In this document: piece by piece, positions 5,060 through 58,193 of the stretch
How positions within the stretch are numbered: the first letter of the stretch is position 1
Layout of the letters: every line of letters begins with the position of its first letter
Notes under the pieces: model-generated
What the model was told of the DNA's origin: nothing
Databases searched by the model: none
What the model saw: only the letters and a program-made list of their open reading frames with translations
Source: an uncultured Gammaproteobacteria bacterium
GTDB taxonomy: Bacteria > Patescibacteriota > Microgenomatia > Woykebacterales > RBG-16-39-9b
Direction: 5' to 3'
DNA length: 64,000 nucleotides
Assembly: GCA_965231125.1 (NCBI GenBank)
Contig: OZ246414.1
Span: 757,440 to 821,439, forward strand
Program-made: the position numbers and the translations under genes

Positions 5060-5082
5060 TTTTTATCGCTATCTACTAGTGG

Positions 5083-5628: not shown

Positions 5629-5631
5629 TTT

Positions 5632-6129: not shown

Positions 6130-6181
6130 GACAAATTCAACTAATTCACCAATTAACTAATCATCTAATCCACTATGTTAA

Positions 6182-42584: not shown

Positions 42585-43670
42585 CTAGCGGTTCAGGGAA
42601 AAATTTCCGGCGCCTTGCGATTTTACTTTACCTTTTATCTCCATTAAAGAAATTAGGGAACCGATTTTTGCAGTGGGAAAGCCAGAGGCTCGAGCAATCT
42701 CGTCGATATGAACTACTCCACTTTCTAAAAGATCAATGATCTTTTGTTCCTCTTCGCTGTCCCCTTTTATTTCTTTTGATTCTGAATTCTTCATTCTCAT
42801 TTCTAAATTCAGCTCCTCAAGTATGTCATTAACGTTCGTAACAAGTTTTGCTCCTTGTTTTATTAAGGAAGACGGCCCGGCGGAAAACTTGGAATAAATT
42901 GGTCCGGGCACGGCAAAAACTTCCCGGCCTTGCTCTCCCGCAAGTCCAGCGGTGATTAAGGACCCAGAATCCTCCCCTGCCTCAGTCACGAGAACTCCGA
43001 GAGATAAACCGCTGATAATACGGTTGCGGGCGGGGAAATTCCCTGGTCGCGGATCCATACCAAGAGGAAACTCACTTATGACGGCGCCATAACCGCCTTC
43101 AATTTCTTTTGCCAAAGCCTCGTTTTCACGTGGATAAACCCGATCGACACCACCCCCAAGAACCGCAATGGTTTTGCCGCTGTTCCCAACTGCCACTCGG
43201 TGCGCGTGCGAATCCACCCCCAGCGCCAGCCCAGAAACTATGGTGAAACTCGCGGCGACTAAATCGCGAACCAAAACTTCAGTCACTTCCCGACCGTAAC
43301 CGGTCATCTTCCTCGTCCCCACAACACCAATAGTTTTACCCTCTTTTGGCAACTGCCCGCGGACGTACAAAACTGGTGGAGGATCCGCAATTTCTTTCAA
43401 AAGTTTTGGGTAAGTTTCATCTTCAATTGTTACCAAACTGATTTTTTTATCAATAATTTCTTCTAGATACTTTTCGGGATTAGTGTTCTTGCGGAAATTT
43501 AAAAAGGTTTCGGCGGTCTTGGGCCCGAGAATTTTTACAAGATTTCTTTCATTTTCTTCCCAAACGGCTCGGGCACTTTTGGCAAATTTCAAAAGAATTT
43601 TAAATTTCGCTGGCCCAATCCCAGGAGCAGCCGCCAAAGCAACGTAATATGGTAAATCTGTTTTTATCAT
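42585..43670 (-). CDS. dprA: DNA processing protein DprA (Smf)
   Basis: 361 aa. Rossmann-like core GVVGTRKMTGYGREVTE...IVSGLALGVDSHAHRVA. Its C-terminal wHTH resembles that of DprA. Confidence 0.85.
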   Translation of the reverse strand: MIKTDLPYYVALAAAPGIGPAKFKILLKFAKSARAVWEENERNLVKILGPKTAETFLNFRKNTNPEKYLEEIIDKKISLVTIEDETYPKLLKEIADPPPVLYVRGQLPKEGKTIGVVGTRKMTGYGREVTEVLVRDLVAASFTIVSGLALGVDSHAHRVAVGNSGKTIAVLGGGVDRVYPRENEALAKEIEGGYGAVISEFPLGMDPRPGNFPARNRIISGLSLGVLVTEAGEDSGSLITAGLAGEQGREVFAVPGPIYSKFSAGPSSLIKQGAKLVTNVNDILEELNLEMRMKNSESKEIKGDSEEEQKIIDLLESGVVHIDEIARASGFPTAKIGSLISLMEIKGKVKSQGAGNFSLNR

Positions 43671-43888
43671 TTCAGAAAGTTAATGCATTCGGCAGTTGTA
43701 AGATATGTTTGTTTAATTATGCTGTTCAAAGTGCCTCTCTTTAGAGGTTTATTGTGGAAGGGTAAGGTGACCCTTAGTTTATCTTTTTTGTAAAGTCTAT
43801 GGCTTCCTTTTTGCCTGACAAAGCTAAAACCGGCAGAAAGTAAAACTTTTTCTGCCTCCCTTGGCTTAACTTGCGGCGTTTTGGTCAT
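43667..43888 (-). CDS. hicA: HicA-family toxin (mRNA interferase)
   Basis: 73 aa, ...LLSAGFSFVRQKGSHRLYKK.... Overlaps hicB by 4 nt. Confidence 0.7.
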   Translation of the reverse strand: MTKTPQVKPREAEKVLLSAGFSFVRQKGSHRLYKKDKLRVTLPFHNKPLKRGTLNSIIKQTYLTTAECINFLK

Positions 43889-44124
43889 GCTTCAATTTCG
43901 ATAGGAGAGACTACTACTGGCTCTTGCTCGCTGGGGATTTTCTCATTGCTTGCTCTTAAATCATCTAAGTAAAGCGTGGCGGCTTCTTTTATGTTTTTTA
44001 ATGCGTCCTCAAAAGTTTCGCCCTCAGAAATACATCCAGGCAATGCTGGTATAGAGACTGCATAACCACCATCTTCACTGGCCTCAAAGACCGCCGTATA
44101 TTTAAAAACCTTTTCATTCCTCAT
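43885..44124 (-). CDS. hicB: HicB-family antitoxin (UPF0150)
   Basis: 79 aa, ...YTAVFEASEDGGYAVSIPALPGCISEGETFEDALKNIKEA.... Confidence 0.7.
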   Translation of the reverse strand: MRNEKVFKYTAVFEASEDGGYAVSIPALPGCISEGETFEDALKNIKEAATLYLDDLRASNEKIPSEQEPVVVSPIEIEA

Positions 44125-44194: not shown

Positions 44195-45331
44195 CTACCT
44201 ATCCACCGCATCTGCACCAACATTGACAGTACCAGAGACGGTTTGTCCGGAGGTAGGGTTAGTTATGTTAACAGTTGGTGCAAGAGTATCACCAGCTGCT
44301 GGACAAGTAAATCCTGCCGCATTGAGGGCTCCACAGGCATCAAGCCTTCCCCAGCCATAAGTTGAATCCCAACCAGGTGTTCCTAGATCCACGGCACTGT
44401 TGTAGATTGCCTGGACAGCAGCAGCTGGTGAGACTCCTTTGGAAAGTAAGAGCCCCAGCACACCAGACACGAGGGAGGAAGCCGGATACGTACCTGAGAC
44501 ATAACCATAGCCTCCAAAGTTTGTCGCAGCCATAATGTTAACACCCGGCGCCGTCAGGTCAATCGCTGCGCCTCGGCCCGAGAACGAGAGAACGCTATCT
44601 GTCTGGTCGGTAGCACCGACAGCCACAACGTTGGCTAGACGGGCCGGATAGGCAACAGTGTAGTCAGCGTTGCCGGTTGGCGCCACAACAATTACGCCTT
44701 TGCTGACGGCGTAGCTGACCGCTGCCTCTAGTTCAGGCAAAGTCGTGTCATACCCCCGGGTAACGATAACATCGGCGCCATGGTCCGTCGCCCAAGTGAT
44801 GCCTTCGGCAAGGTCAGTTAGGGTACACGTATTGGTAGATTCGACACATACTGTTACCGGCATAATCTTGCAGTTCCAACAGACTCCGGCTATGCCGATG
44901 CTGTTATTAGTGGCGGCAGCAGCTACCCCCGCCACCGCGGTTCCTTGATTGTAGCCTGTGCCTCTGTCGTCGGTATCACCACCGCTGACGGTGTTGATTC
45001 CGGGTACCAGCTTCCCCGCTAGGTCCGGGTGTTCCTGATCGACCCCGGTGTTGAGGACGGCGATGACTACGTCGCTAGTACCCGTTGTGATGTCCCAGGC
45101 AGCTGGTGCCCGGATCTTGTCAAGAGCCCACTGGTACCCAGCTTGAAAGTAGGGGTCGTTCGGTGTGGTCGCGGCTCTAGAGGTTGGTTCTCGACTCTGT
45201 TGGACTAAAGTAACGGTGAAAGGGATAGATAAGAAAATGATTAGAGTACCAATAATACTCAAGAGATGTCTTTTGTCTTTTAGATTAATTTCTTCTTTTA
45301 GGTAACTCATCTGGGCAAGCACTCTCATCAA
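44195..45331 (-). CDS. subtilisin-like (S8) pseudo-protease, exported, with shared N-terminal anchor and truncated Ig-like C-terminal tail
   Basis: 378 aa with an S8 fold (VIAVLNTGVDQEHPDL...NQGTAVAGVAAAATNNSIGIAGV...SGTYPASSLVSGVLGLLLS). The catalytic Asp/His/Ser positions read N/A/Y. The N-terminus is identical to that of the gene at 52696-54177. It ends PTVNITNPTSGQTVSGTVNVGADAVDR. Confidence 0.75.
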   Translation of the reverse strand: MMRVLAQMSYLKEEINLKDKRHLLSIIGTLIIFLSIPFTVTLVQQSREPTSRAATTPNDPYFQAGYQWALDKIRAPAAWDITTGTSDVVIAVLNTGVDQEHPDLAGKLVPGINTVSGGDTDDRGTGYNQGTAVAGVAAAATNNSIGIAGVCWNCKIMPVTVCVESTNTCTLTDLAEGITWATDHGADVIVTRGYDTTLPELEAAVSYAVSKGVIVVAPTGNADYTVAYPARLANVVAVGATDQTDSVLSFSGRGAAIDLTAPGVNIMAATNFGGYGYVSGTYPASSLVSGVLGLLLSKGVSPAAAVQAIYNSAVDLGTPGWDSTYGWGRLDACGALNAAGFTCPAAGDTLAPTVNITNPTSGQTVSGTVNVGADAVDR

Positions 45332-45360
45332 GTAAATTATATACCTAGTTAATTATCCGT
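45126..45360. repeat. 235-bp exact duplication, copy 1 (3' tail of metzincin gene + 17-nt spacer + first ~68 codons of S8 gene)
   Basis: Identical by eye to 53972-54206. Confidence 0.85.
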
Positions 45361-47334
45361 CGCACTAACCCCCACGTTAACTGTCCCCGAAACGGTTTGG
45401 TTGTTGGTTGGATTAGTGATGTTAACTGTGGGAGGAACGGTATCTCCACCCGATGCGAGGACTCCATAGCTAATCGTTTTTGAGCTAAAACTATTTGAGT
45501 TGGAGCCGTTCGTCGCGGTCACAATTGCGTCGTAAATATTACCGACGATGGCGCTGGCCGGTGAAGTGAGCGCCAGGGTTGAAGTGCTGGTTGCTCCCGG
45601 AGCCAATGAAAGTAGTATATTGGGCGTGAAACTAGCCGTAAAACCGATTTGCAGCAGATAATATAACGAGAAGGTTGAAGAGCCGCACTCGGGGCTATCA
45701 TTATTAGTAACCGTCACGGAATAGTTTAAAGTTGATCCGGCTTCACCCCAGGCAATTGTCGGCGAGACTACCATTGTTGGAGGCACTCTAGAGCAACCGA
45801 CGACCGTGGGGATTTGGATATCAAGACTAACTTGGCTGGCGCTGATCGAGGCAATTTGGACTGTGATTCCTTTGTCGCTATCCTCAAAGACGCTGCCGAC
45901 TTTTAATTGCGCATCTGGAAATTTGGTCGATGGTGAGGCGTCAATTAACTGAGTGTCTCCGCCACTAGCAGATTTTGGAGCGTAGTGGATCAAAACGCCG
46001 GACAGCTCGGGTCGGTACTCAAAATAAAGCCAGTTAATGATGTTACCGCCAGCGGTTTTGTCGCGCGGAATCTTGATGATTTTTGGACCACTCGACCCGT
46101 AATAATCACTGAGCGTATAAGTACCGCTTGAGCCGACCTGAAGGCTATCACCAGAAACAAAAAAGAACATTTTTTCTTTGTGATAAGCATTGTGTTGGTT
46201 ATTGCTACCTCCCATAATTGAGTACCAATCACCATATTCATCTGAAGTACAGCCACTAGTTTTGATGCTGACCCCGCTGCAGTCATAGTAATTGGCGTGT
46301 AAAGCTCCAAAATTGTGCCCGAGTTCATGACCGACAATGTGTAAACTAAAGTTGGTCGCGCCATTTATCCAAGAAGTACCGCCGCCTTGAACACTACTAA
46401 GAGTCGCCAACCCACTAAAACCACAGTCGCTCATATAAGGAAAAACTACCATTAATTTTCGATAGGCAGCCAAGTTTTCACCCGCGGCGGTAGCCGCTTG
46501 AGTGGCTAGAGAGTAAATTTGCGAAGTATTACAGGTTGCAGGCAGGTTGACAGTGTAACCGGCTGCTTTGCCAGAAAAGCGCATCTTGCCGTAGGAGTTA
46601 TCTTGATAAAAAGTGCTGACCTGGGAAAAAACAACCGATTGAGCACTAGCTACGCTAACAGTATTATTTAAAACCATCACCAAAATTGTTTGATCCAGTA
46701 CCCCCAAGACTGCGCCTTTTACCTGATCCTCCCCAGAGACTTTTTCGACCGCAACCTCTTGACCAATTTTAATACCGGAAACTTTTACCTCTTCGTTGGC
46801 CAAACTAATGAGGGCATCAACATTCTCCTGAGATGGGTAAAGGTTGAATCCAGTTCCGTTAGATTTTAATTTGTAGTAAAATCCTCCCTTTTTTCTCTCA
46901 AAATCATCCCAGTGGGAAACTCCCAGGTTTCCCTCTAGAGTAACCTGCTCTTCGGTATTGACTTGAATTTCAGAGGGTAAAATCCCCTTGGCTTTCTGAT
47001 CAAAGGCAACTCTTACTGCCAGGTCAGGATCTTTTTTAATTAAAGTGGCCATCTTCTCTTTTCTTTGCTCGGAAAGATCAACCATCTTTGCTAGCACTTG
47101 AGGTTTCCGATTGCTAGAAGATTCTCGGTATTTTGAATTTTCTTGAACGAGCTGCCTCGTTAATTGTAAAAGCAGTTCCTTGTCCGAAAGTATCGCAGCT
47201 CTACCGCTGGGTTCTCTTGAGCTCAAGGTCAAGACGACGGTGATTGGTATCGAAAGAAAGATAAAGAAAGTGGCCGCAAGGACAAGCAGATGTTTTTTAT
47301 TTTTTAAATCAACCGGTTCTTTTAGATGATTCAT
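45349..47334 (-). CDS. exported metzincin-type zinc metalloprotease with beta-sandwich (CARDB-like) domain and truncated Ig-like C-terminal tail
   Basis: 661 aa. The HEXXHXXGXXH motif HIVGHELGHNFGALHAN is intact. The N-terminal anchor KKHLLVLAATFFIFLSIPITVVLTLSSREPSGRAA belongs to the shared family. It ends PTVNITNPTNNQTVSGTVNVGVSATDN. Confidence 0.65.
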   Translation of the reverse strand: MNHLKEPVDLKNKKHLLVLAATFFIFLSIPITVVLTLSSREPSGRAAILSDKELLLQLTRQLVQENSKYRESSSNRKPQVLAKMVDLSEQRKEKMATLIKKDPDLAVRVAFDQKAKGILPSEIQVNTEEQVTLEGNLGVSHWDDFERKKGGFYYKLKSNGTGFNLYPSQENVDALISLANEEVKVSGIKIGQEVAVEKVSGEDQVKGAVLGVLDQTILVMVLNNTVSVASAQSVVFSQVSTFYQDNSYGKMRFSGKAAGYTVNLPATCNTSQIYSLATQAATAAGENLAAYRKLMVVFPYMSDCGFSGLATLSSVQGGGTSWINGATNFSLHIVGHELGHNFGALHANYYDCSGVSIKTSGCTSDEYGDWYSIMGGSNNQHNAYHKEKMFFFVSGDSLQVGSSGTYTLSDYYGSSGPKIIKIPRDKTAGGNIINWLYFEYRPELSGVLIHYAPKSASGGDTQLIDASPSTKFPDAQLKVGSVFEDSDKGITVQIASISASQVSLDIQIPTVVGCSRVPPTMVVSPTIAWGEAGSTLNYSVTVTNNDSPECGSSTFSLYYLLQIGFTASFTPNILLSLAPGATSTSTLALTSPASAIVGNIYDAIVTATNGSNSNSFSSKTISYGVLASGGDTVPPTVNITNPTNNQTVSGTVNVGVSATDN

Positions 47335-47335
47335 A

Positions 47336-49816
47336 TTATTGATCTACCGCATTGGCATTAACATTAACTGTACCAGAAACTGTTTGACCAGAGATAGGGT
47401 TAGTAAAATTCACGGTTGGGGCTTGAGTATCCGGTGCAGAATAGTTTAGTGGATTTTTGTAAATCATCACTCTTGGCCGGTTGATATCGGTGACATACAA
47501 ATTGTCAGAGCTATCAAAAGTAGCACCAAACGGCATCGAATAGTAATCGTCAAAATACCCGTCCGGCTGAGTTTTGTTCGGATCAAGAGGGTTTAAGTAA
47601 TAACCAAGGAAACGGCCTCCCACGTAACCGTTGTAGCCCGTCACCATATGATTTTGAGAGTCAAAAGCCACTTCCCAAGTGGCGTGTGCCTGGCCGACAT
47701 CAGGGTTTGGAGAACCATACCGTGGAAAAGTTTTGAAGGCAGTCTTATCAAAAATTACGCTGGTGCTGTCGCCAGGAAAATCGCTGGCGCGGAAAACCAA
47801 CAAGCGGAAATTTCCGCGAACCTCCAAGGAGTGGTCGGAAATGTAGGTGTTGCCAAAATTGTCGATCGAGACATGCCCAGGATAACACAAGTAGTTCAGG
47901 GGTGCTTCAACAGGCTTCGAATAAGTGCCGCCACGGTTACAAGCCGTCGAAGTAATATCTGCCTGGCCAAGGACAACATCAATCACAGGGCTGGTTAAAG
48001 GGTCTCGGATCCTAACAACCCGGCTATTGTCAGAATCTACTACCCAGAGAAAAAGCTTACCGCCAATTACCTGAGGCGCAAGTCCCATCAGGCCTTCATA
48101 GTCTTTTAAAACATCCATACTGCCCCCACCCAAAACCGGGATTGGGGCTCCCCCGCCGGCAACAGAGGCAATAGTTTTGATCAAAATTGGCGGTGCCTGG
48201 GTCGCGTCATAAACATAGATACCTTTGTAGGTCTTTGCCCAAACGCGGCCGCTGGCGTCGGCCTTGAGATTTTTTACAATGTTCATGTTGCAATCAATGG
48301 TATTAAAATCGGGCTGAATCAGCACAACATCGGCCGCCCTGCCGTTTGTTAAAGTTGTCAGATCGTTCCAGACCAAAATTCGACAGCCATCAGTCGCGAA
48401 GAGTTTATTGGCCGCAATCGCGACTCCGTGACCAACACCCATTCGTCGCTCATTAAATATTGTTTTGGAATCAAAAAGTTCCCGATCCCAACCACTGGCT
48501 TTGGTAAGAGGGTCCTTGATTAAAAGAACTCCCTGGGTAGGACTGGGAGCAACTAGGTTCCCATTTTTGGCTATTCCGGCACTTCCGGCCATTAGCTGGT
48601 TAGTGAATATATCATGCCTCAAGATTCCATCAAACCCATAAAGTTGTAGATGACCCCCGTTTGTTACCCAAATACCGCTATTCGCACTATCTACCTCAGA
48701 AACAAATCCACCTACACCAACAAAGACTGTGGCCACTCCGCCTATTGTTTGCTGGTCGGTGGTGAACTTTAAGATACGGGTGTTGCCACCGTCAGATACA
48801 TACAAATTGCCGCTGGGATCAAATCTTACTGAGTTGGGGTTAGCCATTTGGTTGATGGCGTTTCCGGGTTTGCCAGGCCCAGTCGTGAAGTTTGGCTGTC
48901 CAAGAACAACATCAGCTGTTTTTGAAATTGTCCCGTCAGCATTCTTTAGGAAACGCAGAACTCGATGGTTACCATTATCCGCCACCCAAAGGTTACCGCT
49001 TGGATCAAGGGCAACACCAGAACCAGAATTACCTGTATTGCTGTAGTCAACCAAACAGAGTGAAGAAGCTGAAGGTGTTGTACTAAGAATCCAAGCGTTC
49101 GTTTTGTTACAATAATTACCAGTAAAATTATCTTGACCAATGGCCTCATCGGCCACTTGATCATTCCAAGCATCATGGTAAATCAAAATCCGATGGTTTT
49201 CCGTATCGGGCACATAAAGGTTTCCACCTTGCGTGTACATACCGATGAAAGCCAGATTCTCAGCTGTGCTGAGCGAATCTTCTTTAACAAAACAAAGACT
49301 CGCGGCGCTGGCCGGGGCTCTGGTGGGATAGTTTTGAAAGCTACTATCTCCATTGCAGGCACTATAATCTGCCAAGTGGCCTTGCTGTCCAAAAACTTTT
49401 TCAGCCGAACAAGTATTGCCGGCAGGAATACAATTATCAAGGTTGAGGGCAATAATTCGACTCTCTCGCGTCGATTGCGCATAAAGTATTCCGAGTTTAG
49501 AAGTTGAATCAGACACTTCTCGATCAACCACCACACCTCCAGGCCGGTCAACCCACTGTGGGTTTACATAGCCCCTGGACAAAACATCCGTAAAATCCCT
49601 TCTTCCAATAATTACATCTGCCCACAAATCTCCAGCTACTCCCCTAATCCCAACGGCTTGAGTCTTGTAACCACGAAATTGGTAAACTAAGACAACTGTT
49701 AAGGGAATACTAATAAGGATGAGTATTGTGCCTGCTAAAGCTAGTAAATCCTTGGCAGTGTAAGGGGGGTTAATTGCTTGGCGGTACTTTTTAACTAGTT
49801 CTGAAACACTTTCCAC
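47336..49816 (-). CDS. exported NHL-repeat beta-propeller protein with shared N-terminal anchor and truncated Ig-like C-terminal tail
   Basis: 826 aa. NHL-type repeats (YVPDTENHRILIY, VADNGNHRVLRF, VSDGGNTRILKF, DSDNSRVVRI). Stop codon 1 nt from the metzincin start. It ends PTVNFTNPISGQTVSGTVNVNANAVDQ. Confidence 0.7.
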   Translation of the reverse strand: MESVSELVKKYRQAINPPYTAKDLLALAGTILILISIPLTVVLVYQFRGYKTQAVGIRGVAGDLWADVIIGRRDFTDVLSRGYVNPQWVDRPGGVVVDREVSDSTSKLGILYAQSTRESRIIALNLDNCIPAGNTCSAEKVFGQQGHLADYSACNGDSSFQNYPTRAPASAASLCFVKEDSLSTAENLAFIGMYTQGGNLYVPDTENHRILIYHDAWNDQVADEAIGQDNFTGNYCNKTNAWILSTTPSASSLCLVDYSNTGNSGSGVALDPSGNLWVADNGNHRVLRFLKNADGTISKTADVVLGQPNFTTGPGKPGNAINQMANPNSVRFDPSGNLYVSDGGNTRILKFTTDQQTIGGVATVFVGVGGFVSEVDSANSGIWVTNGGHLQLYGFDGILRHDIFTNQLMAGSAGIAKNGNLVAPSPTQGVLLIKDPLTKASGWDRELFDSKTIFNERRMGVGHGVAIAANKLFATDGCRILVWNDLTTLTNGRAADVVLIQPDFNTIDCNMNIVKNLKADASGRVWAKTYKGIYVYDATQAPPILIKTIASVAGGGAPIPVLGGGSMDVLKDYEGLMGLAPQVIGGKLFLWVVDSDNSRVVRIRDPLTSPVIDVVLGQADITSTACNRGGTYSKPVEAPLNYLCYPGHVSIDNFGNTYISDHSLEVRGNFRLLVFRASDFPGDSTSVIFDKTAFKTFPRYGSPNPDVGQAHATWEVAFDSQNHMVTGYNGYVGGRFLGYYLNPLDPNKTQPDGYFDDYYSMPFGATFDSSDNLYVTDINRPRVMIYKNPLNYSAPDTQAPTVNFTNPISGQTVSGTVNVNANAVDQ

Positions 49817-49869
49817 AGACAGTTGGGATAATTATCCCCTAACTAGCCCTGGATTGTCAAGCCACGGCC

Positions 49870-52251
49870 TTATGGCTTCACTGTTAATACAAGTCTCGGT
49901 GCGTAAGAGCTACCTTTTTCTTTTGAATAATAGACTGCCCCGTCGGAGGAGGTAGAGGTTACTCTTAAGCTTACAACCCCATCTTTAGTTATTTTTCCAG
50001 TTAGATTTATCGAATACCACTTCCCTGAGGAAACAGACCCCAACGAAGCCCACTTGGACCCTAAGGCGGGCCGGGTGTTCCAGGTCACCGTCTCCTCCTG
50101 CCAGGAAGTGGTTGTAGTTTTGTAGAAATAGCCACCCCGAACGGAGGGGTTCGTGCAGTAAATTTTTAGAACAGCACTTGTTACTGTGTTAGACCCCACG
50201 CCAGAAACCGAGAATTTCATAAGGAAGTTTCTGTAAGCGCTGTAATCGTCTATCAATGAGGTGGATGCACCATACTTAGTTGTTGGGTGGGTTTTATCAA
50301 TCGTGGCGTCATCAGCCGATCTTATGGTAAGAACCTTAAACACCTTATATGTTGCCTGGGCGGAGGCAGAGTAGGCTGGGTTGGAAGAATTAGTTGCAGT
50401 AGCACTTATTGTGTAGGAGCCTACTGCGGCCGAAGAGGAAGATGTAACTTTCAAGGTTGAAGTTGCAGCTGCCCCTGGAGCAAGACTCAATGATGTTGGT
50501 GTGAAGGAAGCAGACCACCCGGCTGGAATGGAACGCGTCAACGAAAAACTTGAACTACCACAGCCGTTGCTATCATTGTTAGTCACTGAAAAAGTGTAAT
50601 TTAGGCTGGTCCCAGCTTTACCAAACTGACTTGCGGGGATAAGGGACACCGTTGGATTTGCCCGGCTGCAAGCTAGCAGAGTTGTCACTGTCAATCCTAG
50701 CGAGGGATCAGAGACGTTGCTGGCGGCGTCGAAGGCTTGAACTGTGTAAACATAACGTGTATTTGGACTGACCGTACTATCACCAAAGGTGGTGGTGGTC
50801 ACGGTAGCGATACGCACCCCGTCGCGATTAACGTAGTAACCGGCGACCCCAACATTATCCGTTGAAGCATTCCAGGCAAGGTTTATTTGGTTAGCGGTAA
50901 CTAGTGTTGCTCTCAGGTTAGTTGGTATACTTGGCTTTTGGGTATCCGCCTGGTTTGGTGTAGTCACTGTGGCAGTATTGGACAAACCGGAAGTGTTTCC
51001 GGCAGCATCGCGCGCACTAGCGTTGTAATGGTAAGTAGTGTTTGGCAAGGCGCTTGTATCCGAGTATGAAGTAGTCGATGTTTGGGCAATTGTTACACCC
51101 TCACGGTTAATCAAATAGGCGGTAACACCAACATTATCTGTCGAAGGGCTCCAGGCTAAATCTACCCTTGTAGCCGAGATAGCTGTGGCGGTAAGGTTTG
51201 TGGGCGTAGTTGGAGGTATAGTGTCTAGCACTACATAAGTTGCGCTCGCGCTGGCTGTTTTGGTATTATCGACCTGGTTTGTTGCTTTAGCTGTAACTGT
51301 AAAATTACCGATGGCGGCGGAAGCAGACGAAGTGACCTTGAAAGTTGAGGTGCCGGCTGCCCCTGGAGCAAGACTCAATGATGTCGGTGTAAAGGTAGCG
51401 CTCCAGCCAGCCGGGATAGTTTGGGCTAAGGAAAATGTCGAGCTGGCGCAACTGGCACTGTCTTGGTTGGTCACGGAGAAAGTGTAGTTTAGACTAGTCC
51501 CAGGCCCACCAGATTGACTGGCTGGTGAAAGGGAGACCAGCGGGTTTGACCTGGTACAAGGAGCAACGTTATTGACATTCACAGAGACGGCTGCGGAGGT
51601 GGCTATATTCGCAGGATTTGCATTATCATAAGCTTTAGCAGAAAGAGTATGGCTGCCATTCGCTACGGTAGTAGAATCCCAGCTAGTACTGTAAGGAGAA
51701 GTTGTATCTGTACCAATCAGGGTGGTTGTATCGCGATAAAATTCAACCTTTTGAATACCAGCGGTATCGGAAGCATTAGCAGAAACTGTAACCGCTACCC
51801 CCGAAACTGTTGCACCGTTTGTGGGTGCGGTTACTGAAACCGACGGCGCGGTATTATCCACTGTAACCGTCGCTGAAGCTTGGCCGACATTAACTGGGCT
51901 GGCATTATCATAAGCTTTAGCCAGAATTGTATGAGACCCATCACCAATTGTTTTAGTGTCCCAAGAATAGTTGTAGGGACTAGTTGTATCAGTGCTCTTC
52001 AAGGCCCCATCAATGTAAAATTCGACTTTACTAACCCCGGTAGCTGCGGCTAAAACTTCCGCAATCAGCTTCCCCTCTTTTAGTTTTTTAATTGTAAGTG
52101 TCGGGTTGAGGGCTTTGTTGGTTTCTCTGCGCCCCTCACTTAAAAAGTTAGCAGCGACCAAAGACAATAAAATTACCGCCAGGAGAACTGCTAGACGGAG
52201 TCTTCTTTTTAAATTAACTTTTCCTTTTAATCTCGGCATCGGCAGATTCAT
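49870..52251 (-). CDS. exported multi-domain surface protein (Ig-like and fibronectin-III-like domains, duplicated beta-sandwich domain)
   Basis: 793 aa with a signal-like N-terminus. Two full Ig-like domains (...PSVSVTAPTNGATVSGVAVTVSANASDTAGIQKVEFY...). FN3-like segments (...LTATAISATRVDLAWSPSTDNVGVTAY...). An internally duplicated ~90-aa domain is also present in the metzincin. Confidence 0.6.
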   Translation of the reverse strand: MNLPMPRLKGKVNLKRRLRLAVLLAVILLSLVAANFLSEGRRETNKALNPTLTIKKLKEGKLIAEVLAAATGVSKVEFYIDGALKSTDTTSPYNYSWDTKTIGDGSHTILAKAYDNASPVNVGQASATVTVDNTAPSVSVTAPTNGATVSGVAVTVSANASDTAGIQKVEFYRDTTTLIGTDTTSPYSTSWDSTTVANGSHTLSAKAYDNANPANIATSAAVSVNVNNVAPCTRSNPLVSLSPASQSGGPGTSLNYTFSVTNQDSASCASSTFSLAQTIPAGWSATFTPTSLSLAPGAAGTSTFKVTSSASAAIGNFTVTAKATNQVDNTKTASASATYVVLDTIPPTTPTNLTATAISATRVDLAWSPSTDNVGVTAYLINREGVTIAQTSTTSYSDTSALPNTTYHYNASARDAAGNTSGLSNTATVTTPNQADTQKPSIPTNLRATLVTANQINLAWNASTDNVGVAGYYVNRDGVRIATVTTTTFGDSTVSPNTRYVYTVQAFDAASNVSDPSLGLTVTTLLACSRANPTVSLIPASQFGKAGTSLNYTFSVTNNDSNGCGSSSFSLTRSIPAGWSASFTPTSLSLAPGAAATSTLKVTSSSSAAVGSYTISATATNSSNPAYSASAQATYKVFKVLTIRSADDATIDKTHPTTKYGASTSLIDDYSAYRNFLMKFSVSGVGSNTVTSAVLKIYCTNPSVRGGYFYKTTTTSWQEETVTWNTRPALGSKWASLGSVSSGKWYSINLTGKITKDGVVSLRVTSTSSDGAVYYSKEKGSSYAPRLVLTVKP

Positions 52252-52262
52252 AAATTAATTTT

Positions 52263-52676
52263 TCATTTCACAACCACACTACCGTTAGTAGTTGGGTGGA
52301 GCTGATCGTGATACCCAAAAGTGCCACTCTTCTCAAACGTAAACGTGTAAATCTCGCCTTTTTTCAAAGGTTTTTTAGCATCAAATCCGGCAAGACCATT
52401 GTTGATCGGGTAAGGATTAGAGGCCGGCTGATGAGCCTTTGAGTCTTCATTAATCCAACCCACGGTTTCGCCCTTATTAATTAAAATTGTTTGGGGGTTG
52501 AAACCATTCTTGGTAATAGTTACGAAGGCGGTCGGTGCCGGCTTTTTGGGTAGTGCCGGGCCAAGCTTCAAATGACCTCTGGAAATTAATAGTGCAATAA
52601 TTAAAGCTAAACCGAGGATAATTACTACAACTAATTTTTGTTGTTTTTCCACTATTAAAATTATCTTATTTATCAT
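52263..52676 (-). CDS. small membrane-anchored cupredoxin-fold-like protein lacking Cys ligand
   Basis: 137 aa. N-terminal TM, then GETVGWINEDSKAHQP...YTFTFEKSGTFGYHDQLHP, reminiscent of the plastocyanin-like fold. No cysteine present. Confidence 0.35.
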   Translation of the reverse strand: MINKIILIVEKQQKLVVVIILGLALIIALLISRGHLKLGPALPKKPAPTAFVTITKNGFNPQTILINKGETVGWINEDSKAHQPASNPYPINNGLAGFDAKKPLKKGEIYTFTFEKSGTFGYHDQLHPTTNGSVVVK

Positions 52677-52695
52677 ATTAGGTTGTCAAGCTCAA

Positions 52696-54177
52696 TTACC
52701 TATCCACCGCATCTGCACCAACATTGACAGTACCAGAGACGGTTTGTCCCCCGGCAGGATTGGTGATGGTTACGCTTGGTGGTAAGGTATCTCCCCCACC
52801 AGTTACGTTAATTGGCAGGGTATCTGTGGCAAAAACTCCGGCTCTTTCAACTCTGACAGCAGCCAGATAGTTGCCGGCAGTCTGGTAGCTACAAAGGTCA
52901 TTAATCTGTTCTGGATTACTATCGGTGGTGAGGTTCGATTCATAAGTGCCATCGTTGGTACAGTCAAAGCGGTAGGTGATTCTGCCTATTGCAGTTCCAC
53001 CAACCGAGGCCTGAATGTCAACTCCATTGAGGGGGGCGGTGCCGGAAACCCCTGCTGATGAGAATGTTTGGCTTGAGAGTACTCTGCCTGAAAGTACAAC
53101 GGAGAGTGTTGGTGGTGGTGGTGGTGGTGGAGCTACACAGGCAAACCCGGCTTTGTTCAGAGCTCCACAGGCATCCAGCCTGCCCCAGCCATAAGTTGAA
53201 TCCCAACCGGCTGTTCCTAAATCTTTGGCTCCTTGATATAAAGCGTTAACAGCTGCAGTTGGTGAAACTCCTTTGGATAGCAGCAACCCCAGCACGCCAG
53301 CCACGTGCGCGGCTGCCAGCGTGTTTGTGGTGGCAACTGGGTAGTAGTACGGCACATGGCCAGTTGACATGATGACCTCGCCCGGCGCTGTGATATCCAG
53401 TTCTGGGCCGCTGCCCGAGTAAGGCGAGATCATGTCGTTTTGATCGGTATTGCCCACCGCCACAACTCCAGGGTAGGCTGCCGGGTAGCGCGCAGGGTTA
53501 TCGACTAAAGCTAAAGGCGCCACCACGATAGCCCCCTTTCCGATAGCGTAGTTAACTGCCGATTCTAGTGCCGTAGATGCTCTGAGTCCCTGATGGACGA
53601 AGAGAACGGATGCTCCGTGGTCTACTGCCCAGCGAATCCCAGTGGCCGTGTAACCATAGTCGTTCAGATCGCTGCATGGAAAATCGCAAACTACGACCGG
53701 CATGAGTCCAACCTGCCAGTTGATCCCGGCGATGCCAACTCCGTTGTTGGTGCTTGCTCCGATAACGCCTGCCTCCATCGAGCCACTCCCGATCGAATCG
53801 TAAGTTGGGGTGCCCGGCTTGAGTACGTTGTATCCAGGGATCAAATTGCTGTTGCTACCGAGATCCTCATTGGGCGTGGTGGTTCCGACCCCGCTGCCGA
53901 GCAGGGCGACTATAACACTGCGGCTGCCGGTGGTGATGTCCCAGGCCTCGGGAGCGTGAATCTTGGTTAGGGCCCACTGGTACCCAGCTTGAAAGTAGGG
54001 GTCGTTCGGTGTGGTCGCGGCTCTAGAGGTTGGTTCTCGACTCTGTTGGACTAAAGTAACGGTGAAAGGGATAGATAAGAAAATGATTAGAGTACCAATA
54101 ATACTCAAGAGATGTCTTTTGTCTTTTAGATTAATTTCTTCTTTTAGGTAACTCATCTGGGCAAGCACTCTCATCAA
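52696..54177 (-). CDS. subtilisin-like (S8) pseudo-protease, paralog 2, with C-terminal extension, poly-Pro linker and truncated Ig-like tail
   Basis: 493 aa. The first ~68 residues are identical to 44195-45331. Catalytic positions read G/M/T. PPPPPPP linker. It ends PSVTITNPAGGQTVSGTVNVGADAVDR. Confidence 0.75.
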   Translation of the reverse strand: MMRVLAQMSYLKEEINLKDKRHLLSIIGTLIIFLSIPFTVTLVQQSREPTSRAATTPNDPYFQAGYQWALTKIHAPEAWDITTGSRSVIVALLGSGVGTTTPNEDLGSNSNLIPGYNVLKPGTPTYDSIGSGSMEAGVIGASTNNGVGIAGINWQVGLMPVVVCDFPCSDLNDYGYTATGIRWAVDHGASVLFVHQGLRASTALESAVNYAIGKGAIVVAPLALVDNPARYPAAYPGVVAVGNTDQNDMISPYSGSGPELDITAPGEVIMSTGHVPYYYPVATTNTLAAAHVAGVLGLLLSKGVSPTAAVNALYQGAKDLGTAGWDSTYGWGRLDACGALNKAGFACVAPPPPPPPTLSVVLSGRVLSSQTFSSAGVSGTAPLNGVDIQASVGGTAIGRITYRFDCTNDGTYESNLTTDSNPEQINDLCSYQTAGNYLAAVRVERAGVFATDTLPINVTGGGDTLPPSVTITNPAGGQTVSGTVNVGADAVDR

Positions 54178-54206
54178 GTAAATTATATACCTAGTTAATT
54201 ATCCGT
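53972..54206. repeat. 235-bp exact duplication, copy 2
   Basis: Identical to 45126-45360, including the promoter-proximal spacer and the 5' coding region. Confidence 0.85.
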
Positions 54207-54317
54207 TGCATTAACATTGACATTAACAGTTCCCGAGACGGTTTGTCCGGAGGTTGGATTGGTTATTTTGGCTGTCCAGTTGGTGAGAGCTGCGGAGTTA
54301 TTTTCTTCCATGGGCAT
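54195..54317 (-). pseudogene. orphan 40-codon remnant encoding only the shared Ig-like C-terminal tail
   Basis: Translates MPMEENNSAALTNWTAKITNPTSGQTVSGTVNVNVNATDN-stop. It sits 17 nt upstream of the S8 paralog start, the same spacing as metzincin to S8 copy 1. No upstream body remains; the guaA stop is 39 nt away. Confidence 0.45.
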
Positions 54318-54356
54318 TTAATTTAATTATGGCCAACCTGAAATCTGTTGTCAAAC

Positions 54357-55883
54357 TTATTCGTATTCTATCGTCGCTGGCGGTTTTTGGGTTATGTCGT
54401 AAACCACCCGGTTTACACCTCTTACCTCATTAACAATCCTACTCGCGATTTTTTCTAAGACGTCTTGTGGAATTTTGAACCAATCAGCTGTCATCCCATC
54501 TACACTAGTTACTGCCCGCAAACTAATTATATACTGATAGGTTCTCGCATCCCCCATCACCCCAACCGTTTTCACTGGTAAAAGAGCAGCGAAGGCTTGC
54601 CAGATTTTGTTGTAAAGCTTGACCGTCTTAAGCTCTTCAATATAAATTGCATCCGCTTGTCGTAAAATCTCAAGACGATCTTGCGTTATTTCGCCTAAAA
54701 CGCGAATTGCCAGCCCCGGTCCGGGAAAAGGATGACGAAAAAGTTCTTCTTTGGAAAGACGCAGCTGCAAGCCCAATTGCCGCACTTCATCTTTATAAAA
54801 AGCAGCTAGCGGCTCAACGATTTTAAACTTAAGTTTCTCCGGCAAAGTTAGATTGTGATGACTTTTAATTTTAGCGGCCTGCTTGGATGAAGCCGCGGAC
54901 TCAACCCTATCTGGATAAATTGTTCCTTGGGCAAAAAAACGAATTTTTTCCTTTTTTTCCAAAGTCTTAGCTACATCTTCAAAAACTTTTATGAAGGTGT
55001 GCCCGATTATTTTTCTTTTACCTTCCGGATCCACCACCCCCTTCAACCTCTTTAGAAAGAGGGCTGACGCATCCACCTTAAGAAAATGTTTGAAACCTCG
55101 TTTCTCGTATATTTTTTCTACCTCGGCAGCTTCATTTTCGCGCAAAAGCCCGTGATCGATAAAAACCGCATGGAGCCTGTCACCGATTGCTTTGTGAAGA
55201 AGATTTGCGGCAACAAGCGAATCCACGCCACCAGAAACGCCAATTAAGACTTTCTCGCCACCAACTTCGCTCCTCAATCTCTCAACTAGCTGACCCTTTA
55301 GATCTTCGATTCGCCAATTCTTTTTTGCGCGACAGATACCAAAAACAAAATTTTTTAAAATCCTCGTACCGTTTTTAGTGTGAACAACTTCCGGGTGAAA
55401 TTGTATTGCATAAATTTTTTTATCAATATTGGAAAATCCACTGACAGGACAAGAAATGCTACTAGCAATAATTTCGAATTTTTGGGGAACTTTTTTTACC
55501 AAATCCCCATGGGAAAGCCAGACAATTTGGCTCTCTTCAAGACCTTTAAACAGCGGGTCGTTCGTCTTCACCTTAACAACTTCTTTTCCGTATTCCCCTT
55601 TTCCCCCAGCACCCACTTGCCCACCCAAGTTTTTTGCGAGAGCCTGTAAACCGTAACAGATACCAAGTATAGGTATGTTGAGACTGAGAATTGAGTTGGA
55701 GAAGGACGGGGCGCCCTTTTCATAAACTGAGGCTGGTCCACCGGAAAGAATTATACCCTCCAAATTATCTATTGTTGATAAAGAGTCTTTAGGGCTAAAA
55801 ATTTCAGCCGCAACATGAAGCTCACGGATACGACGGGCAATAAGATGAGTATACTGACTACCAAAATCGACAACAGCAATCAT
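54357..55883 (-). CDS. guaA: GMP synthase (glutamine-hydrolysing)
   Basis: 508 aa. MIAVVDFGSQYTHLIARRIRELHV. GATase GICYGLQ. ATP-PPase SGGVDS. C-terminal dimerisation domain ending ...IEYE. Confidence 0.9.
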   Translation of the reverse strand: MIAVVDFGSQYTHLIARRIRELHVAAEIFSPKDSLSTIDNLEGIILSGGPASVYEKGAPSFSNSILSLNIPILGICYGLQALAKNLGGQVGAGGKGEYGKEVVKVKTNDPLFKGLEESQIVWLSHGDLVKKVPQKFEIIASSISCPVSGFSNIDKKIYAIQFHPEVVHTKNGTRILKNFVFGICRAKKNWRIEDLKGQLVERLRSEVGGEKVLIGVSGGVDSLVAANLLHKAIGDRLHAVFIDHGLLRENEAAEVEKIYEKRGFKHFLKVDASALFLKRLKGVVDPEGKRKIIGHTFIKVFEDVAKTLEKKEKIRFFAQGTIYPDRVESAASSKQAAKIKSHHNLTLPEKLKFKIVEPLAAFYKDEVRQLGLQLRLSKEELFRHPFPGPGLAIRVLGEITQDRLEILRQADAIYIEELKTVKLYNKIWQAFAALLPVKTVGVMGDARTYQYIISLRAVTSVDGMTADWFKIPQDVLEKIASRIVNEVRGVNRVVYDITQKPPATIEYE

Positions 55884-55948
55884 TTGGAGAGATTATATTT
55901 AATATTTTGCAGCTTAGCAAGGAAACGTTTACTTAGTATTGAGGATCC

Positions 55949-56111
55949 TAATAAACTTCCGAGGGCTAAAACCCTCGGTATTGTTCTTTAAGTTTACACG
56001 AGCGCAGAAAACCCTTGAAAGTCTAACTTACATTTCCCCTCAGAAGTGTGTAATCACTCTTAGCATTCATCCCCACTTTAAGAAAGTGGATTTTCTGCTA
56101 GCGATTATAAC
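55949..56111. repeat. 163-bp intergenic repeat family B, copy 2
   Basis: Exact match to 3033-3195. Lies between the stop of the gene at 56124 and the guaA start. Confidence 0.85.
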
Positions 56112-56123
56112 CCCAATCAATTC

Positions 56124-58193
56124 CTAGGGTACAGTTATTGTTAGAGTTTGGGTGACTGTGTTGACGCCGTCACTGGCTCTTAGCGGTACAAAGTAAGTAG
56201 TGGCTGCTTGACCTAAACTTGGAGTCCATTTAAATTCCCCAGTAATAGAATTTAGAGTTGCACCTGACGGGCCAGTCATACTGTAAGTTATTGAGCTACC
56301 CTCTGGATCGGTGGCGCGGATGAAAAACCAAAGTAACTTACCAACGGCAAGATTATCAGGTGGCCAGTTTAAATTATAATCGTTATTAACTATATCTACA
56401 TCTGCCTGCGTAATTGAACCGTTTGCATTAAGGTCATAAGCGGGGTATAAACTTGCACTTTGTCCAACCTTTTGAACAACTGCTAGTATATCTGCTGAAG
56501 TAACTTTTCCATCACTACCAACAACATCTGGATCAAGAATGATTAGAGTAGGCGCCAAATTAACATTGGACACTGTAACCGCTATCGTCGAGGACACCCC
56601 GGTGTTTCCAGCAGCATCGTAAGCTTTGGCTGAGACATTGTGTAAACCATTAGACAAAGCTCTAGTATTCCAAGCGTAGGTGTATGGGAAGGACAAGTCG
56701 GACCCTTTAAGGAAACCATCAACGTAAAATTCCACTTTTGTGACCCCAATATTATCTGAAGCAGTGGCGGCAATATTTGTTATTCCAGATACAGATGAGC
56801 CATCGGCTGGTGAAGTTATTGAAACCGTTGGGCTGGTTATATCGACGTTATTATACTTTCGAACCCAAATATCATAACCTTGCCCGACACGATATTGACT
56901 GCCGATTACGTAAGTGTTATCCGATTTGTCAGCCACTACATCCGCACCGCTATCGTTTAAACTATCTGGGCTATTGTATGTGCCTTGCCACAAAAGACTT
57001 CCTTTACCAGTCATAACTCTTAACCAAACATCTTTATTTGTTAGGCTCACTTCCTTTTGGCCAATGACAAAAACATTTCCGAGATTGGGATTCTTATCAA
57101 CGTAGACCGAGGCCGCTGACTCGTCCAAATTGTCCGTTGTGCTGCTAACGTTCTGCCAGAGTCTTGTCCCAGCCGAGTTATACATTTGGATAATAGCGTT
57201 TGAATGATAAAGTCCGTCCCCCTCTTTACGGAAGCTCTTACCAGCGACGTAAGCATTTCCTACTAAATCGGTGGCCACACTGTGACCTGCGTCCAAATTA
57301 TTGGAAGGGCTATTGTATCGTTTAATCCACGAAGTTTTCCCGGCGGATGATATCTTTGCTAACCAAAGGTTACCCTTTTGTCCGATGGCGCTTCGGTCTT
57401 CGACACCAGTAGCGTAAATGCTTCCCGCCCCCGTAGCCGCAATGCCGTAGCCTTTATCATTGTTTCCAACTAAACTATTAGTTTTTGAAGGTGTTGGTGA
57501 AGTATATTTCTTTGACCAGACAGGGGTACCAGCTGAAGTATACTTTCGAACCCAAATGTCGTTCCCTTCTTTGGGGTAGTAAAGAAAGCCGATAACATAA
57601 ACATTCCCTGAATTGTCTAAGGCAATATCTTGGCCTTGATCGTTTTTATTGGCCGGGCCGTTCTGCGTCCGGGTCCAAAGTACCGTACCGCTGCTATTAT
57701 ACTTTCGAACCCAAACGTCTAACCTTTTCGTCGAACTCATCGTGGCCGCTCCAACGACATAAATATATCCAGAAGAATTCACAGCTATGTCCGCACCGTA
57801 ATCGTTTTTATTGGCCGGGCCGTTATAGGTTTTAGTCCAAAGTACACCGCCACTTGGATTATATTTGCGCAGCCAAATATCGTAATTACTCCCGTTATAA
57901 ACAGTGCCGACAGCATAAATATTTTTGCTGGAATCAATAGCGACCCCGCTACCCGTATCTTTACCGTTATGGGAGTCGTTATAACTTCTAGTCCAGGCAG
58001 GCTGAAGCAGAAAAGACACCGCGGATGACTGCGCTCGACTTGCTGGTTCTCTGGCCTGATTTGCGAGAAATATGGTGAGAGGAATCGCGGCAAGAATAAT
58101 TAGTGTGCCAATTAACGGAAGAACATCCTTGGAAGTATAAGGAGAGTTTATTGCTTGGCGGTATTTTTGAACTTGCTCTTTTAATGTCTCCAC
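56124..58193 (-). CDS. exported beta-propeller (SBBP-like repeat) protein with full Ig-like domain and C-terminal dockerin-like repeats
   Basis: 689 aa. Shared N-terminal anchor (LIGTLIILAAIPLTIFLANQAREPASRA). Repeated ...YDIWLRKYN.SG..LWT.TYNGPANKNDYG.DIA... units. Full Ig-like domain TVSITSPADGSSVSGITNIAATASDNIGVTKVEFYVDG. Two Ca-binding-like dockerin repeats (DPDVVGSDGKVTSADILAV and DLNANGSITQADVDIV). Confidence 0.6.
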   Translation of the reverse strand: METLKEQVQKYRQAINSPYTSKDVLPLIGTLIILAAIPLTIFLANQAREPASRAQSSAVSFLLQPAWTRSYNDSHNGKDTGSGVAIDSSKNIYAVGTVYNGSNYDIWLRKYNPSGGVLWTKTYNGPANKNDYGADIAVNSSGYIYVVGAATMSSTKRLDVWVRKYNSSGTVLWTRTQNGPANKNDQGQDIALDNSGNVYVIGFLYYPKEGNDIWVRKYTSAGTPVWSKKYTSPTPSKTNSLVGNNDKGYGIAATGAGSIYATGVEDRSAIGQKGNLWLAKISSAGKTSWIKRYNSPSNNLDAGHSVATDLVGNAYVAGKSFRKEGDGLYHSNAIIQMYNSAGTRLWQNVSSTTDNLDESAASVYVDKNPNLGNVFVIGQKEVSLTNKDVWLRVMTGKGSLLWQGTYNSPDSLNDSGADVVADKSDNTYVIGSQYRVGQGYDIWVRKYNNVDITSPTVSITSPADGSSVSGITNIAATASDNIGVTKVEFYVDGFLKGSDLSFPYTYAWNTRALSNGLHNVSAKAYDAAGNTGVSSTIAVTVSNVNLAPTLIILDPDVVGSDGKVTSADILAVVQKVGQSASLYPAYDLNANGSITQADVDIVNNDYNLNWPPDNLAVGKLLWFFIRATDPEGSSITYSMTGPSGATLNSITGEFKWTPSLGQAATTYFVPLRASDGVNTVTQTLTITVP

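Follow-up and report, generated by a model that had tools for sequence, protein, structure and literature searches.

Among the terminal elements known from exported proteins are families of conserved signal peptides and modules for C-terminal tethering. Signal peptides of the YSIRK-G/S and KxYKxGKxW families carry a long, conserved motif on the cytoplasmic side and occur on diverse surface proteins with C-terminal anchoring modules, and type I dockerins are short C-terminal modules on unrelated exported enzymes. Bacteria of the candidate phyla radiation (CPR; Patescibacteria), whose genomes are tiny, are believed to live attached to other cells, and the way in which they display proteins at their surface is largely unknown. 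Here, we describe a CPR gene cluster in which five exported proteins with unrelated domains share a conserved N-terminal leader, and four of them also a C-terminal tail that is homologous to the first third of an immunoglobulin (Ig)-like domain of the Big_7 family (PF17957). The cluster is located in a 64,000-nt stretch (the window) of contig OZ246414.1 in GenBank assembly GCA_965231125.1 (positions 757,440 to 821,439 of the forward strand); coordinates refer to the window, and all genes from 42.5 to 62.3 kb are on its minus strand.

An earlier reading of the DNA without database searches (the sequence-only reading) had reported five genes with a common leader, truncated Ig tails on four of their products, and an orphan copy of the tail, all of which are borne out by a leader profile, Pfam, and a locally built hidden Markov model (HMM) of Big_7. 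In Pfam, the passengers of the five leader genes are two subtilases (Peptidase_S8), referred to as sub1 (44195..45310) and sub2 (52696..54156), a reprolysin-like metallopeptidase with the motif HExxHxxGxxH, an NHL propeller, and an SBBP propeller protein with additional Big_7, dockerin, and He_PIG domains. The metallopeptidase (45349..47334; HELGHNFGALH) is of the metzincin type and has a NEW3/CARDB-like β-domain between leader and tail, the NHL-repeat β-propeller protein (47336..49816) combines a leader of the KYRQAINPPY type with a tail, and the SBBP protein (56124..58193) has a leader but no tail.

A truncated Ig domain as a conserved C-terminal tail

The last 26–29 residues of the four tail-bearing proteins match positions 1–28/29 of the 70 positions in the Big_7 profile of Pfam, and the stop codon follows immediately. 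With the local Big_7 HMM, all five tails, including the orphan, are detected at E = 3e-9 to 4e-7 (HMM positions 1–26/27). They are encoded at 44195..44293 in sub1 (GDTLAPTVNITNPTSGQTVSGTVNVGADAVDR-TAG; Big_7 positions 1–28), 45349..45447 in the metzincin (…TVNITNPTNNQTVSGTVNVGVSATDN-TAA), 47336..47434 in the NHL protein (…TVNFTNPISGQTVSGTVNVNANAVDQ-TAA), 52696..52794 in sub2 (…SVTITNPAGGQTVSGTVNVGADAVDR-TAA), and 54195..54317 in the orphan, an open reading frame (ORF) of 40 codons (MPMEENNSAALTNWTAKITNPTSGQTVSGTVNVNVNATDN-stop) that has neither leader nor passenger. The consensus of 27–32 residues is DTxxPTVNITNPxxGQTVSGTVNVxxxAxDx-stop. Bit scores against Big_7 are 17–21.5 within the full proteins and 26–28 when the tails are scanned alone (gathering score, 24.1); because they cover only about 40% of the profile, the tails are homologous fragments rather than Big_7 domains. 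In an AlphaFold2 model of sub1, the tail forms two β-strands with a predicted local distance difference test (pLDDT) score of 77–90.

The sequence-only reading was right that there is no room for the rest of the domain downstream. The gaps past the stop codons of the tails amount to 1 nt (between the NHL tail and the next gene start), 17 nt (38 nt to a likelier ATG), 19 nt, and 70 nt, and the local Big_7 HMM finds no detached C-terminal half of the domain in any of the six frames of the window, which led us to reject a hidden continuation via frameshift, read-through, or a second exon-like piece. Complete Big_7 domains are present in two proteins of the cluster, as had also been recognized: two in a membrane-anchored, Ig-rich protein (49870..52251) and one in the SBBP protein.

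The same truncation recurs in other genomes. The 12 tails collected from about five genomes (the window, Kazan bacterium RIFCSPLOWO2_01_FULL_48_13, and metagenome contigs L005, L010, L012, and L014) all stop directly after D-x, and they are attached to at least five unrelated types of passengers: pseudo-S8, active S8, metzincin, NHL, and, in L010, a CAP/SCP-domain protein. Among the close homologues of sub1 and sub2, leader and tail are both kept in P0004, P0006 (from the same Kazan bacterium), P0007, and the catalytically intact P0011, with the same end residue (…SGTVNVxVxAxDN-stop). Of roughly 100 listed subtilase homologues that are more distant, the majority have a complete Big_7 domain after the S8 domain, among them P0014 (with a KYRQSINPPY leader); the tail was thus derived from a full domain. 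The sequence-only reading had taken a complete Ig domain at the C-terminus of homologues as a sign of simple decay; distant homologues indeed have one, but the close ones keep the truncation.

The tail peptide is under purifying selection. A Nei–Gojobori analysis of the last 27 codons of the 12 tails yielded pooled proportions of synonymous differences (pS) of 0.67, which is essentially saturated, and of nonsynonymous differences (pN) of 0.18; most pairs are saturated (pS 0.5–0.9 vs. pN 0.03–0.29). The peptide has thus been conserved while the DNA was randomized, so that, for most copies, neither plain decay nor a recent duplication nor a DNA repeat can be the explanation. The tails comprise two subtypes, …DAVDR and …NATDN, each of which is kept between genomes. 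Because synonymous sites are saturated, a function of the tail at the level of nucleic acids is disfavoured; a conserved DNA motif or RNA element past the stop codon was considered and rejected, since the spacers vary in both length (0–70 nt) and sequence. The tail-encoding DNA of the window copies is only 63–84% identical, so that the near-identity claimed for it in the sequence-only reading applies to no more than a 53-nt stretch at the 3' end of the two subtilase tails.

A back-translated pattern of the tail plus stop codon, applied to 185,579 species genomes and to JGI metagenomes, retrieved Kazan-type contigs only, apart from three chance matches (YchF in a metagenome-assembled genome (MAG) of Saccharibacteria, L009, and L011); the pattern is strict in that it requires SGTVNV.[AV].A.D, and divergent tails escape it. 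A word-indexed protein search with the tail profile returned six short fragments and missed known members, and the members of the tail family were therefore gathered from full-length subtilase matches and DNA patterns.

The leader is a widespread export signal of CPR bacteria

The leader profile matches exactly five ORFs of the window (44195–45331, 45349–47334, 47336–49816, 52696–54177, and 56124–58193) at E = 4e-23 to 6e-30, with the next best match at E = 0.85; as four of the 11 N-termini from which the profile was made stem from this window, these E-values are partly circular. The leaders are encoded at 45170..45310 in sub1 (MSYLKEEINLKDKRHLL...IPFTV...REPTSRA), 54016..54156 in sub2 (identical to that of sub1), 47197..47334 in the metzincin, 49655..49816 in the NHL protein, and 58032–58193 in the SBBP protein. 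Both subtilases likely start at an ATG (MSYLKEE...; position 45310 in sub1) and not at the upstream TTG, and this start aligns with that of the metzincin. The near-identity of the N-termini noted in the sequence-only reading holds for the two subtilases, with 70 identical residues in common; identity to their leader is 33–49% for the remaining leaders of the window, and the leaders fall into two subtypes, KExxNLKxKxHLL and KYRQAINxPY. The N-termini of the Ig-rich protein and of a cupredoxin-like protein encoded next to it were considered as additional members and rejected, because the leader profile detects neither.

At E <= 1e-3, an exhaustive profile search detected the leader in 251 cluster representatives, 83 of which are also matched at E <= 1e-10; the match is almost always at residues 1–60, on proteins of 64–1630 aa. 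A word-indexed protein search with the leader profile was nearly blind and returned a single match. The consensus is MRAADLFxxYRxSINPPYxxKDxLxIxxTLFILLAIPLTVIxxxQxREPxSRA, and an INPPY-like motif is present in 119 of the 150 leader proteins listed. Named carriers belong to Candidatus Woykeibacteriota (Microgenomates group), ‘Patescibacteria group’, and candidate division Kazan-3B-28. Dockerin-type repeats form the end of 34 of the 78 leader proteins of at least 400 aa among the 150 listed. The tail occupies this position in three of the 150, all of them subtilases that were also found in the homologue search. The leader has no model in Pfam or NCBIfam; three leaders compared with NCBIfam at E <= 10 gave only weak noise from Vlp-lipoprotein signal peptides and membrane proteins, the curated models of the YSIRK and KxYKxGKxW signal peptides in NCBIfam do not match, and literature searches on the INPPY motif and on CPR combined with dockerin found nothing relevant. 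The leader is a broad, uncurated export signal of CPR bacteria that is specific neither to this locus nor to the tail. The sequence-only reading had regarded leader and tail as one dedicated, paired system, which is at odds with this distribution and with the tailless SBBP protein.

The leader had also been interpreted as a permanent membrane anchor. Judging from its sequence, it is probably a long, cleavable Sec signal peptide that is cut after SRA: a basic n-region and a hydrophobic h-region are followed by a c-region that is long (about 10 aa), and S-R-A fits the −3/−1 rule. Moreover, SRA|ATTPND or SRA|ETIPND of the leaders aligns exactly with the predicted ARA|ETRPND of the ordinary signal peptides in P0003 and P0009, close pseudo-subtilase homologues from outside the CPR, and the predicted cleavage point directly precedes the thermitase-like mature N-terminus TxPNDP.

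Subtilases that lost their catalytic residues

The sequence-only reading had called the two subtilases pseudoenzymes, and the alignment agrees. In the catalytic columns D/H/N/S, which are occupied by DHNS in 89 of 104 aligned homologues, sub1 has N/Q/N/Y and sub2 has G/S/L/T. Neither protein has the Asp-His-Ser triad together with the oxyanion Asn of an active Peptidase S8, and both are classified, on their sequences, as pseudo-subtilases. The fold itself seems to be preserved; AlphaFold2 predicts a confident thermitase-like structure for sub1 (mean pLDDT 91.8), whose best match in the PDB is 1THM (41% identity). Relative to sub1, sub2 has additional sequence between the S8 domain and the tail (residues ~345–465), namely a linker of the sequence PPPPPPP and a further β-domain (about 100 aa) that is PKD-like by eye and did not match any Pfam family.

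Two homologues differ from sub1 mainly in their termini. P0003, a protein of 421 aa on a Logan contig, is 78% identical to sub1 and has the same degenerate triad (N/Q/N/Y), with an ordinary signal peptide and a C-terminus rich in Pro and Thr in place of leader and tail. These features suggest that a subtilase core was transferred between a lineage of the CPR and one outside it and acquired local termini in the process. P0002, encoded on a JGI contig (343 aa), matches sub1 with 100% identity beyond residue ~80, whereas its N-terminus resembles a membrane subunit of the proton-antiporter/NuoN type (PF00361); a chimera at the level of the contig or the gene call, broken inside the repeated leader region, is the probable explanation.

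Recombination at the junctions between genes

The cassette shuffling proposed in the sequence-only reading receives support from a gene-conversion tract at 45126..45360 on the minus strand, where 235 nt are 100% identical to positions 53972–54206. The tract includes the final three codons (9 nt) of a tail with its stop codon, the spacer between the genes, and, in the next gene, the leader plus about 20 codons for S8; its flanks are 20–80% identical in the adjacent 20-nt bins and unalignable further out. Together with the 53 identical nucleotides in which the sub1 and sub2 tails end, it documents that recombination at tail-stop-leader junctions is real and that the tracts are recent.

Such junctions are a recurrent feature. 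Contigs L013 and L014 have arrays with 0–40 nt between a tail and the leader-bearing gene after it, and in L010, a tail-bearing CAP protein is encoded just upstream of the cupredoxin gene, where the window, a Kazan MAG (L003), and L005 have a tail-bearing subtilase. Terminal modules and passengers have evidently been reshuffled at conserved gene ends. The orphan tail is most similar to the tails of P0004-type subtilases from another metagenome, which there precede a leader-bearing subtilase; it is probably a remnant that was left behind when the body of an upstream tail-bearing gene next to guaA was deleted.

The arrangement in the window is confirmed by contig L016 from a different JGI metagenome, which matches positions 45262–54206 (8.9 kb) with 99.94% identity (4 mismatches, 1 gap) and includes three of the five tails (sub2, NHL, and metzincin). 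It ends within the repeated junctions, once inside the orphan tail, as assemblers tend to break off at repeats. The locus is no assembly artefact, and the identical end of 12 copies from about five genomes argues against simple decay and a mis-assembled repeat, the two alternatives named in the sequence-only reading. The single gap in L016 (positions 4391–6870, corresponding to 47336–49816 of the window) breaks the NHL gene up into two ORFs (569 and 260 aa), which reflects either a frameshift variant in the population or a sequencing error.

Possible functions of the tail

The explanation that we favour, tentatively and with slightly less than even confidence, is that the locus is a surface protein and exoprotein cluster whose passengers carry an export leader and a tethering tail derived from Big_7. 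In a Kazan-3B-28-type CPR bacterium, unrelated passengers would have been provided with two lineage-specific terminal modules that differ in age and scope. The leader (the N-terminal 46–55 residues, with the cytoplasmic motif KYRxSINPPY or KExxNLKxKxHLL, a hydrophobic helix with IPLTV, and REPxSRA) would export the protein via Sec and be cut after SRA by signal peptidase I. The tail would correspond to strands A and B of the Big_7 domain. Its most likely origin is a single truncation event in a subtilase, among the relatives of which an entire Big_7 domain is retained at the C-terminus; from there, the shortened version would have spread to adjacent genes through recombination at the repeatedly found tail-stop-leader junctions, with purifying selection maintaining the peptide since. 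Because an isolated A-B hairpin exposes a face that is buried in the intact domain, we infer that the tail may bind a partner as an amphipathic β-hairpin, presumably in a non-covalent manner by β-sheet or edge association. Candidate partners would be another tail or the Ig-rich, membrane-anchored protein of the same cluster, and binding would hold the exported (pseudo)enzymes at the cell surface, as does the dockerin found at this position in many other leader proteins. Our best guess, by analogy, is therefore a β-hairpin module for tethering or association in a role comparable to that of dockerin.

Several points weigh against this explanation. No binding partner of the tail emerged from the analysis. 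The hairpin may instead pack on its own passenger domain; the presence of five kinds of passengers speaks against a common docking site within the molecule but is no proof of one between molecules. The orphan tail lacks a leader, so that this copy cannot act outside the cell. A headless Big_7 domain that might accept the missing strands was not found in the window, where the sole Big_7 with odd A and B strands (the first such domain of the Ig-rich protein) looks complete. Cleavage after SRA is proposed from positional alignment and the −3/−1 rule, and the narrow searches for the tail underestimate its true distribution.

Confidence in a function of the tail is low, and its main rival is a tolerated stump. 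According to this explanation, which we regard as unlikely, a nonsense mutation or truncation removed two thirds of a C-terminal Big_7 domain, and the remaining piece was copied by duplication and gene conversion, so that the similarity of the tails reflects concerted evolution. The full domain in the distant homologues and the conversion tracts at the junctions are in line with such an evolutionary leftover, as is the orphan copy, which shows that pieces do get left behind; that CPR genomes are generally streamlined also speaks for it. However, gene conversion would have homogenized the synonymous sites too, which is at odds with the high pS and low pN of most tail pairs; the position of the stop codon and the motif have persisted in at least five families of passengers from about five genomes, and each of the two tail subtypes is conserved between genomes.

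A donor-strand mechanism, in which the half-Ig tail represents the donor half of a split Big_7 domain, is improbable. After export, the hairpin would insert into the scaffold formed by the Ig-rich protein, replacing or completing strands A and B of an acceptor domain such as its first Big_7; the weak A-B segment of the latter would be displaced or clipped by proteases of the cluster, and the clients would lock onto the scaffold as in the donor-strand exchange of pili. The idea draws on the observation that the local HMM matches the first Big_7 of the Ig-rich protein over positions 28–67 only, which is the exact complement of the tails (positions 1–27). This domain is located right after the membrane anchor, its A-B segment is rich in Lys, six residues shorter than the canonical version in a hand alignment, and modelled by AlphaFold2 with a pLDDT of about 55 (79–96 for the rest), and proteases are encoded within the cluster. 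The gene order, with a tail-bearing gene followed by the cupredoxin gene (52263..52676 in the window) and the gene of the Ig-rich protein, is also conserved in four organisms (window, Kazan MAG L003, L005, and L010) and recurs in L016, an independent assembly of the window strain. By contrast, MAFFT aligned the segment preceding the match (PTLTIKKLKEGKLIAEVLAAAT) with the canonical strands A and B, so that the domain aligns with canonical Big_7 over its full length except for the SDN loop; AlphaFold2 assigns it two N-terminal strands of its own, and orthologues show strong conservation of the A-B segment, in keeping with a structural role within the domain. With no headless Big_7 in the window, the Ig-rich protein was rejected as a strand acceptor for lack of support, and the strand complementation by a partial Ig domain of a neighbour that the sequence-only reading envisaged loses its sole candidate, which aligns as a complete variant domain.

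It is highly unlikely that the tail is a covalent sorting signal, which a dedicated transpeptidase or protease would cleave to attach the protein to the envelope, as with LPXTG, PEP-CTERM, or the C-terminal domain (CTD) of the type IX secretion system (T9SS). The extreme C-terminal position, the many unrelated exported proteins that carry the tail, and its pairing with a conserved signal peptide are reminiscent of such signals, and the combination of leader and tail resembles proteins with YSIRK and LPXTG. However, the tail is polar, β-prone, and ends in D-(R/N/Q), without a hydrophobic helix or a basic end, and it matches no sorting-signal model of NCBIfam even at E <= 10. At 27–32 aa and with no match in NCBIfam, it is also far shorter than the T9SS CTD (Por_Secre_tail), and there is no sortase, exosortase, or rhombosortase among the ORFs annotated at 39–62 kb, although some ORFs of this region and the rest of the window were not scanned. 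A repeat that was collapsed or mis-joined in this one assembly can be dismissed, because L016, although its breaks inside the junctions show that the repeats do disturb assemblers, is nearly identical across three tails and their flanks, the tail copies differ by 16–37% in their DNA, and the same architecture is present in NCBI, ENA, JGI, and Logan assemblies of other organisms.

Gene neighbourhood

In the direction of transcription, the region begins with mreB, mreC, an ORF of 115 aa that is presumably mreD, and a gene identified by eye as PBP2. They are followed by the gene of the SBBP protein (56124–58193), guaA (54357–55883; identified by eye), the orphan tail (54195–54317), sub2 (52696–54156), the genes of the cupredoxin-like protein (52263–52676) and the Ig-rich protein (49870–52251), those of the NHL protein (47336–49816) and the metzincin (45349–47334), and sub1 (44195–45310). 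Beyond sub1 are hicB, hicA, and dprA (the latter identified by eye).

The Ig-rich protein, which has no tail, contains two NPCBM_assoc and two fn3 domains and a CBM96/DNRLRE domain in addition to its two Big_7 domains. The cupredoxin-like protein is small and membrane-anchored, and in each of four genomes, its gene comes right after a tail-bearing gene. The protein has no cysteine and therefore lacks a classical type-1 copper site; its His-rich motifs (HQPASNPxPxxNG and GYHDxLxPT) are conserved.

Toxin–antitoxin-type genes adjoin the tail array in two genomes. In the window, a HicB/HicA pair (43670–44124, minus strand) is located 70 nt downstream of the sub1 tail, and in the Kazan MAG, a gene for a PemK-type toxin and an adjoining small, unannotated ORF that is possibly its antitoxin are located between two tail-bearing subtilase genes (L002, 139–739). 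Two promoter-like sequences were noticed by eye only: TTGACA and TAATTA, separated by 17 nt, just upstream of the orphan-tail ORF (54321–54356, minus strand), and TATATAAT in the spacer before the start of sub2.

Implications and comparison with known systems

The leader marks hundreds of families of surface proteins and exoproteins in CPR bacteria, and an HMM of the leader could define CPR exoproteomes. The tail is a lineage-restricted peptide from one third of an Ig domain that has been preserved by selection on unrelated passengers. If it serves in tethering or strand donation, it would be a new, very small tag for docking between proteins and a case of a domain fragment that gained a function of its own; strand exchange would make it a natural docking system for building an array of enzymes on the surface of CPR bacteria. 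Even if the tail is not a docking element, the locus documents that recombination at conserved gene ends moves terminal modules in a streamlined genome.

Among the described systems, the CTD of T9SS and the signals for sortases and exosortases are likewise conserved C-terminal elements of diverse exported proteins, but the tail fits neither the complete β-sandwich of 70–100 aa of the former nor the combination of motif, transmembrane helix, and basic tail of the sortase type. Donor-strand complementation in chaperone–usher and type V pili and the SpyTag/SpyCatcher pair are similar in concept, since a terminal Ig β-strand could complete or bind another Ig-like domain; however, there is no acceptor with a missing strand in the window, and usher or chaperone genes and isopeptide-forming residues are not in evidence, so that the likeness is pure analogy. 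With Big_7 itself, the tail is clearly homologous over positions 1–28, and complete copies are present in the neighbouring proteins and in homologous subtilases, but the tail cannot form a β-sandwich alone, and its truncation point is fixed and conserved. Type I dockerin is comparable in that the tail is located where many leader proteins have a dockerin. Unlike the latter, it is an Ig-derived β-hairpin and not a Ca-binding, EF-hand-like duplicate; it does not match Dockerin_1 (PF00404), whose sole representative in the window is in the SBBP protein (residues 560–604), and a cohesin-like partner is not known for it. The leader resembles the YSIRK-G/S and KxYKxGKxW signal peptides in its long, conserved cytoplasmic-side motif and in its range of passengers, but differs in the motif itself (YRxSINPPY … IPLTV … REPxSRA), in its occurrence in CPR phyla, and in having no match in NCBIfam or Pfam. 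It is thus an undescribed example of a conserved signal-peptide family, and, among C-terminal tethering modules, a fixed one-third Ig domain retained as a tag would be an unusual variant.

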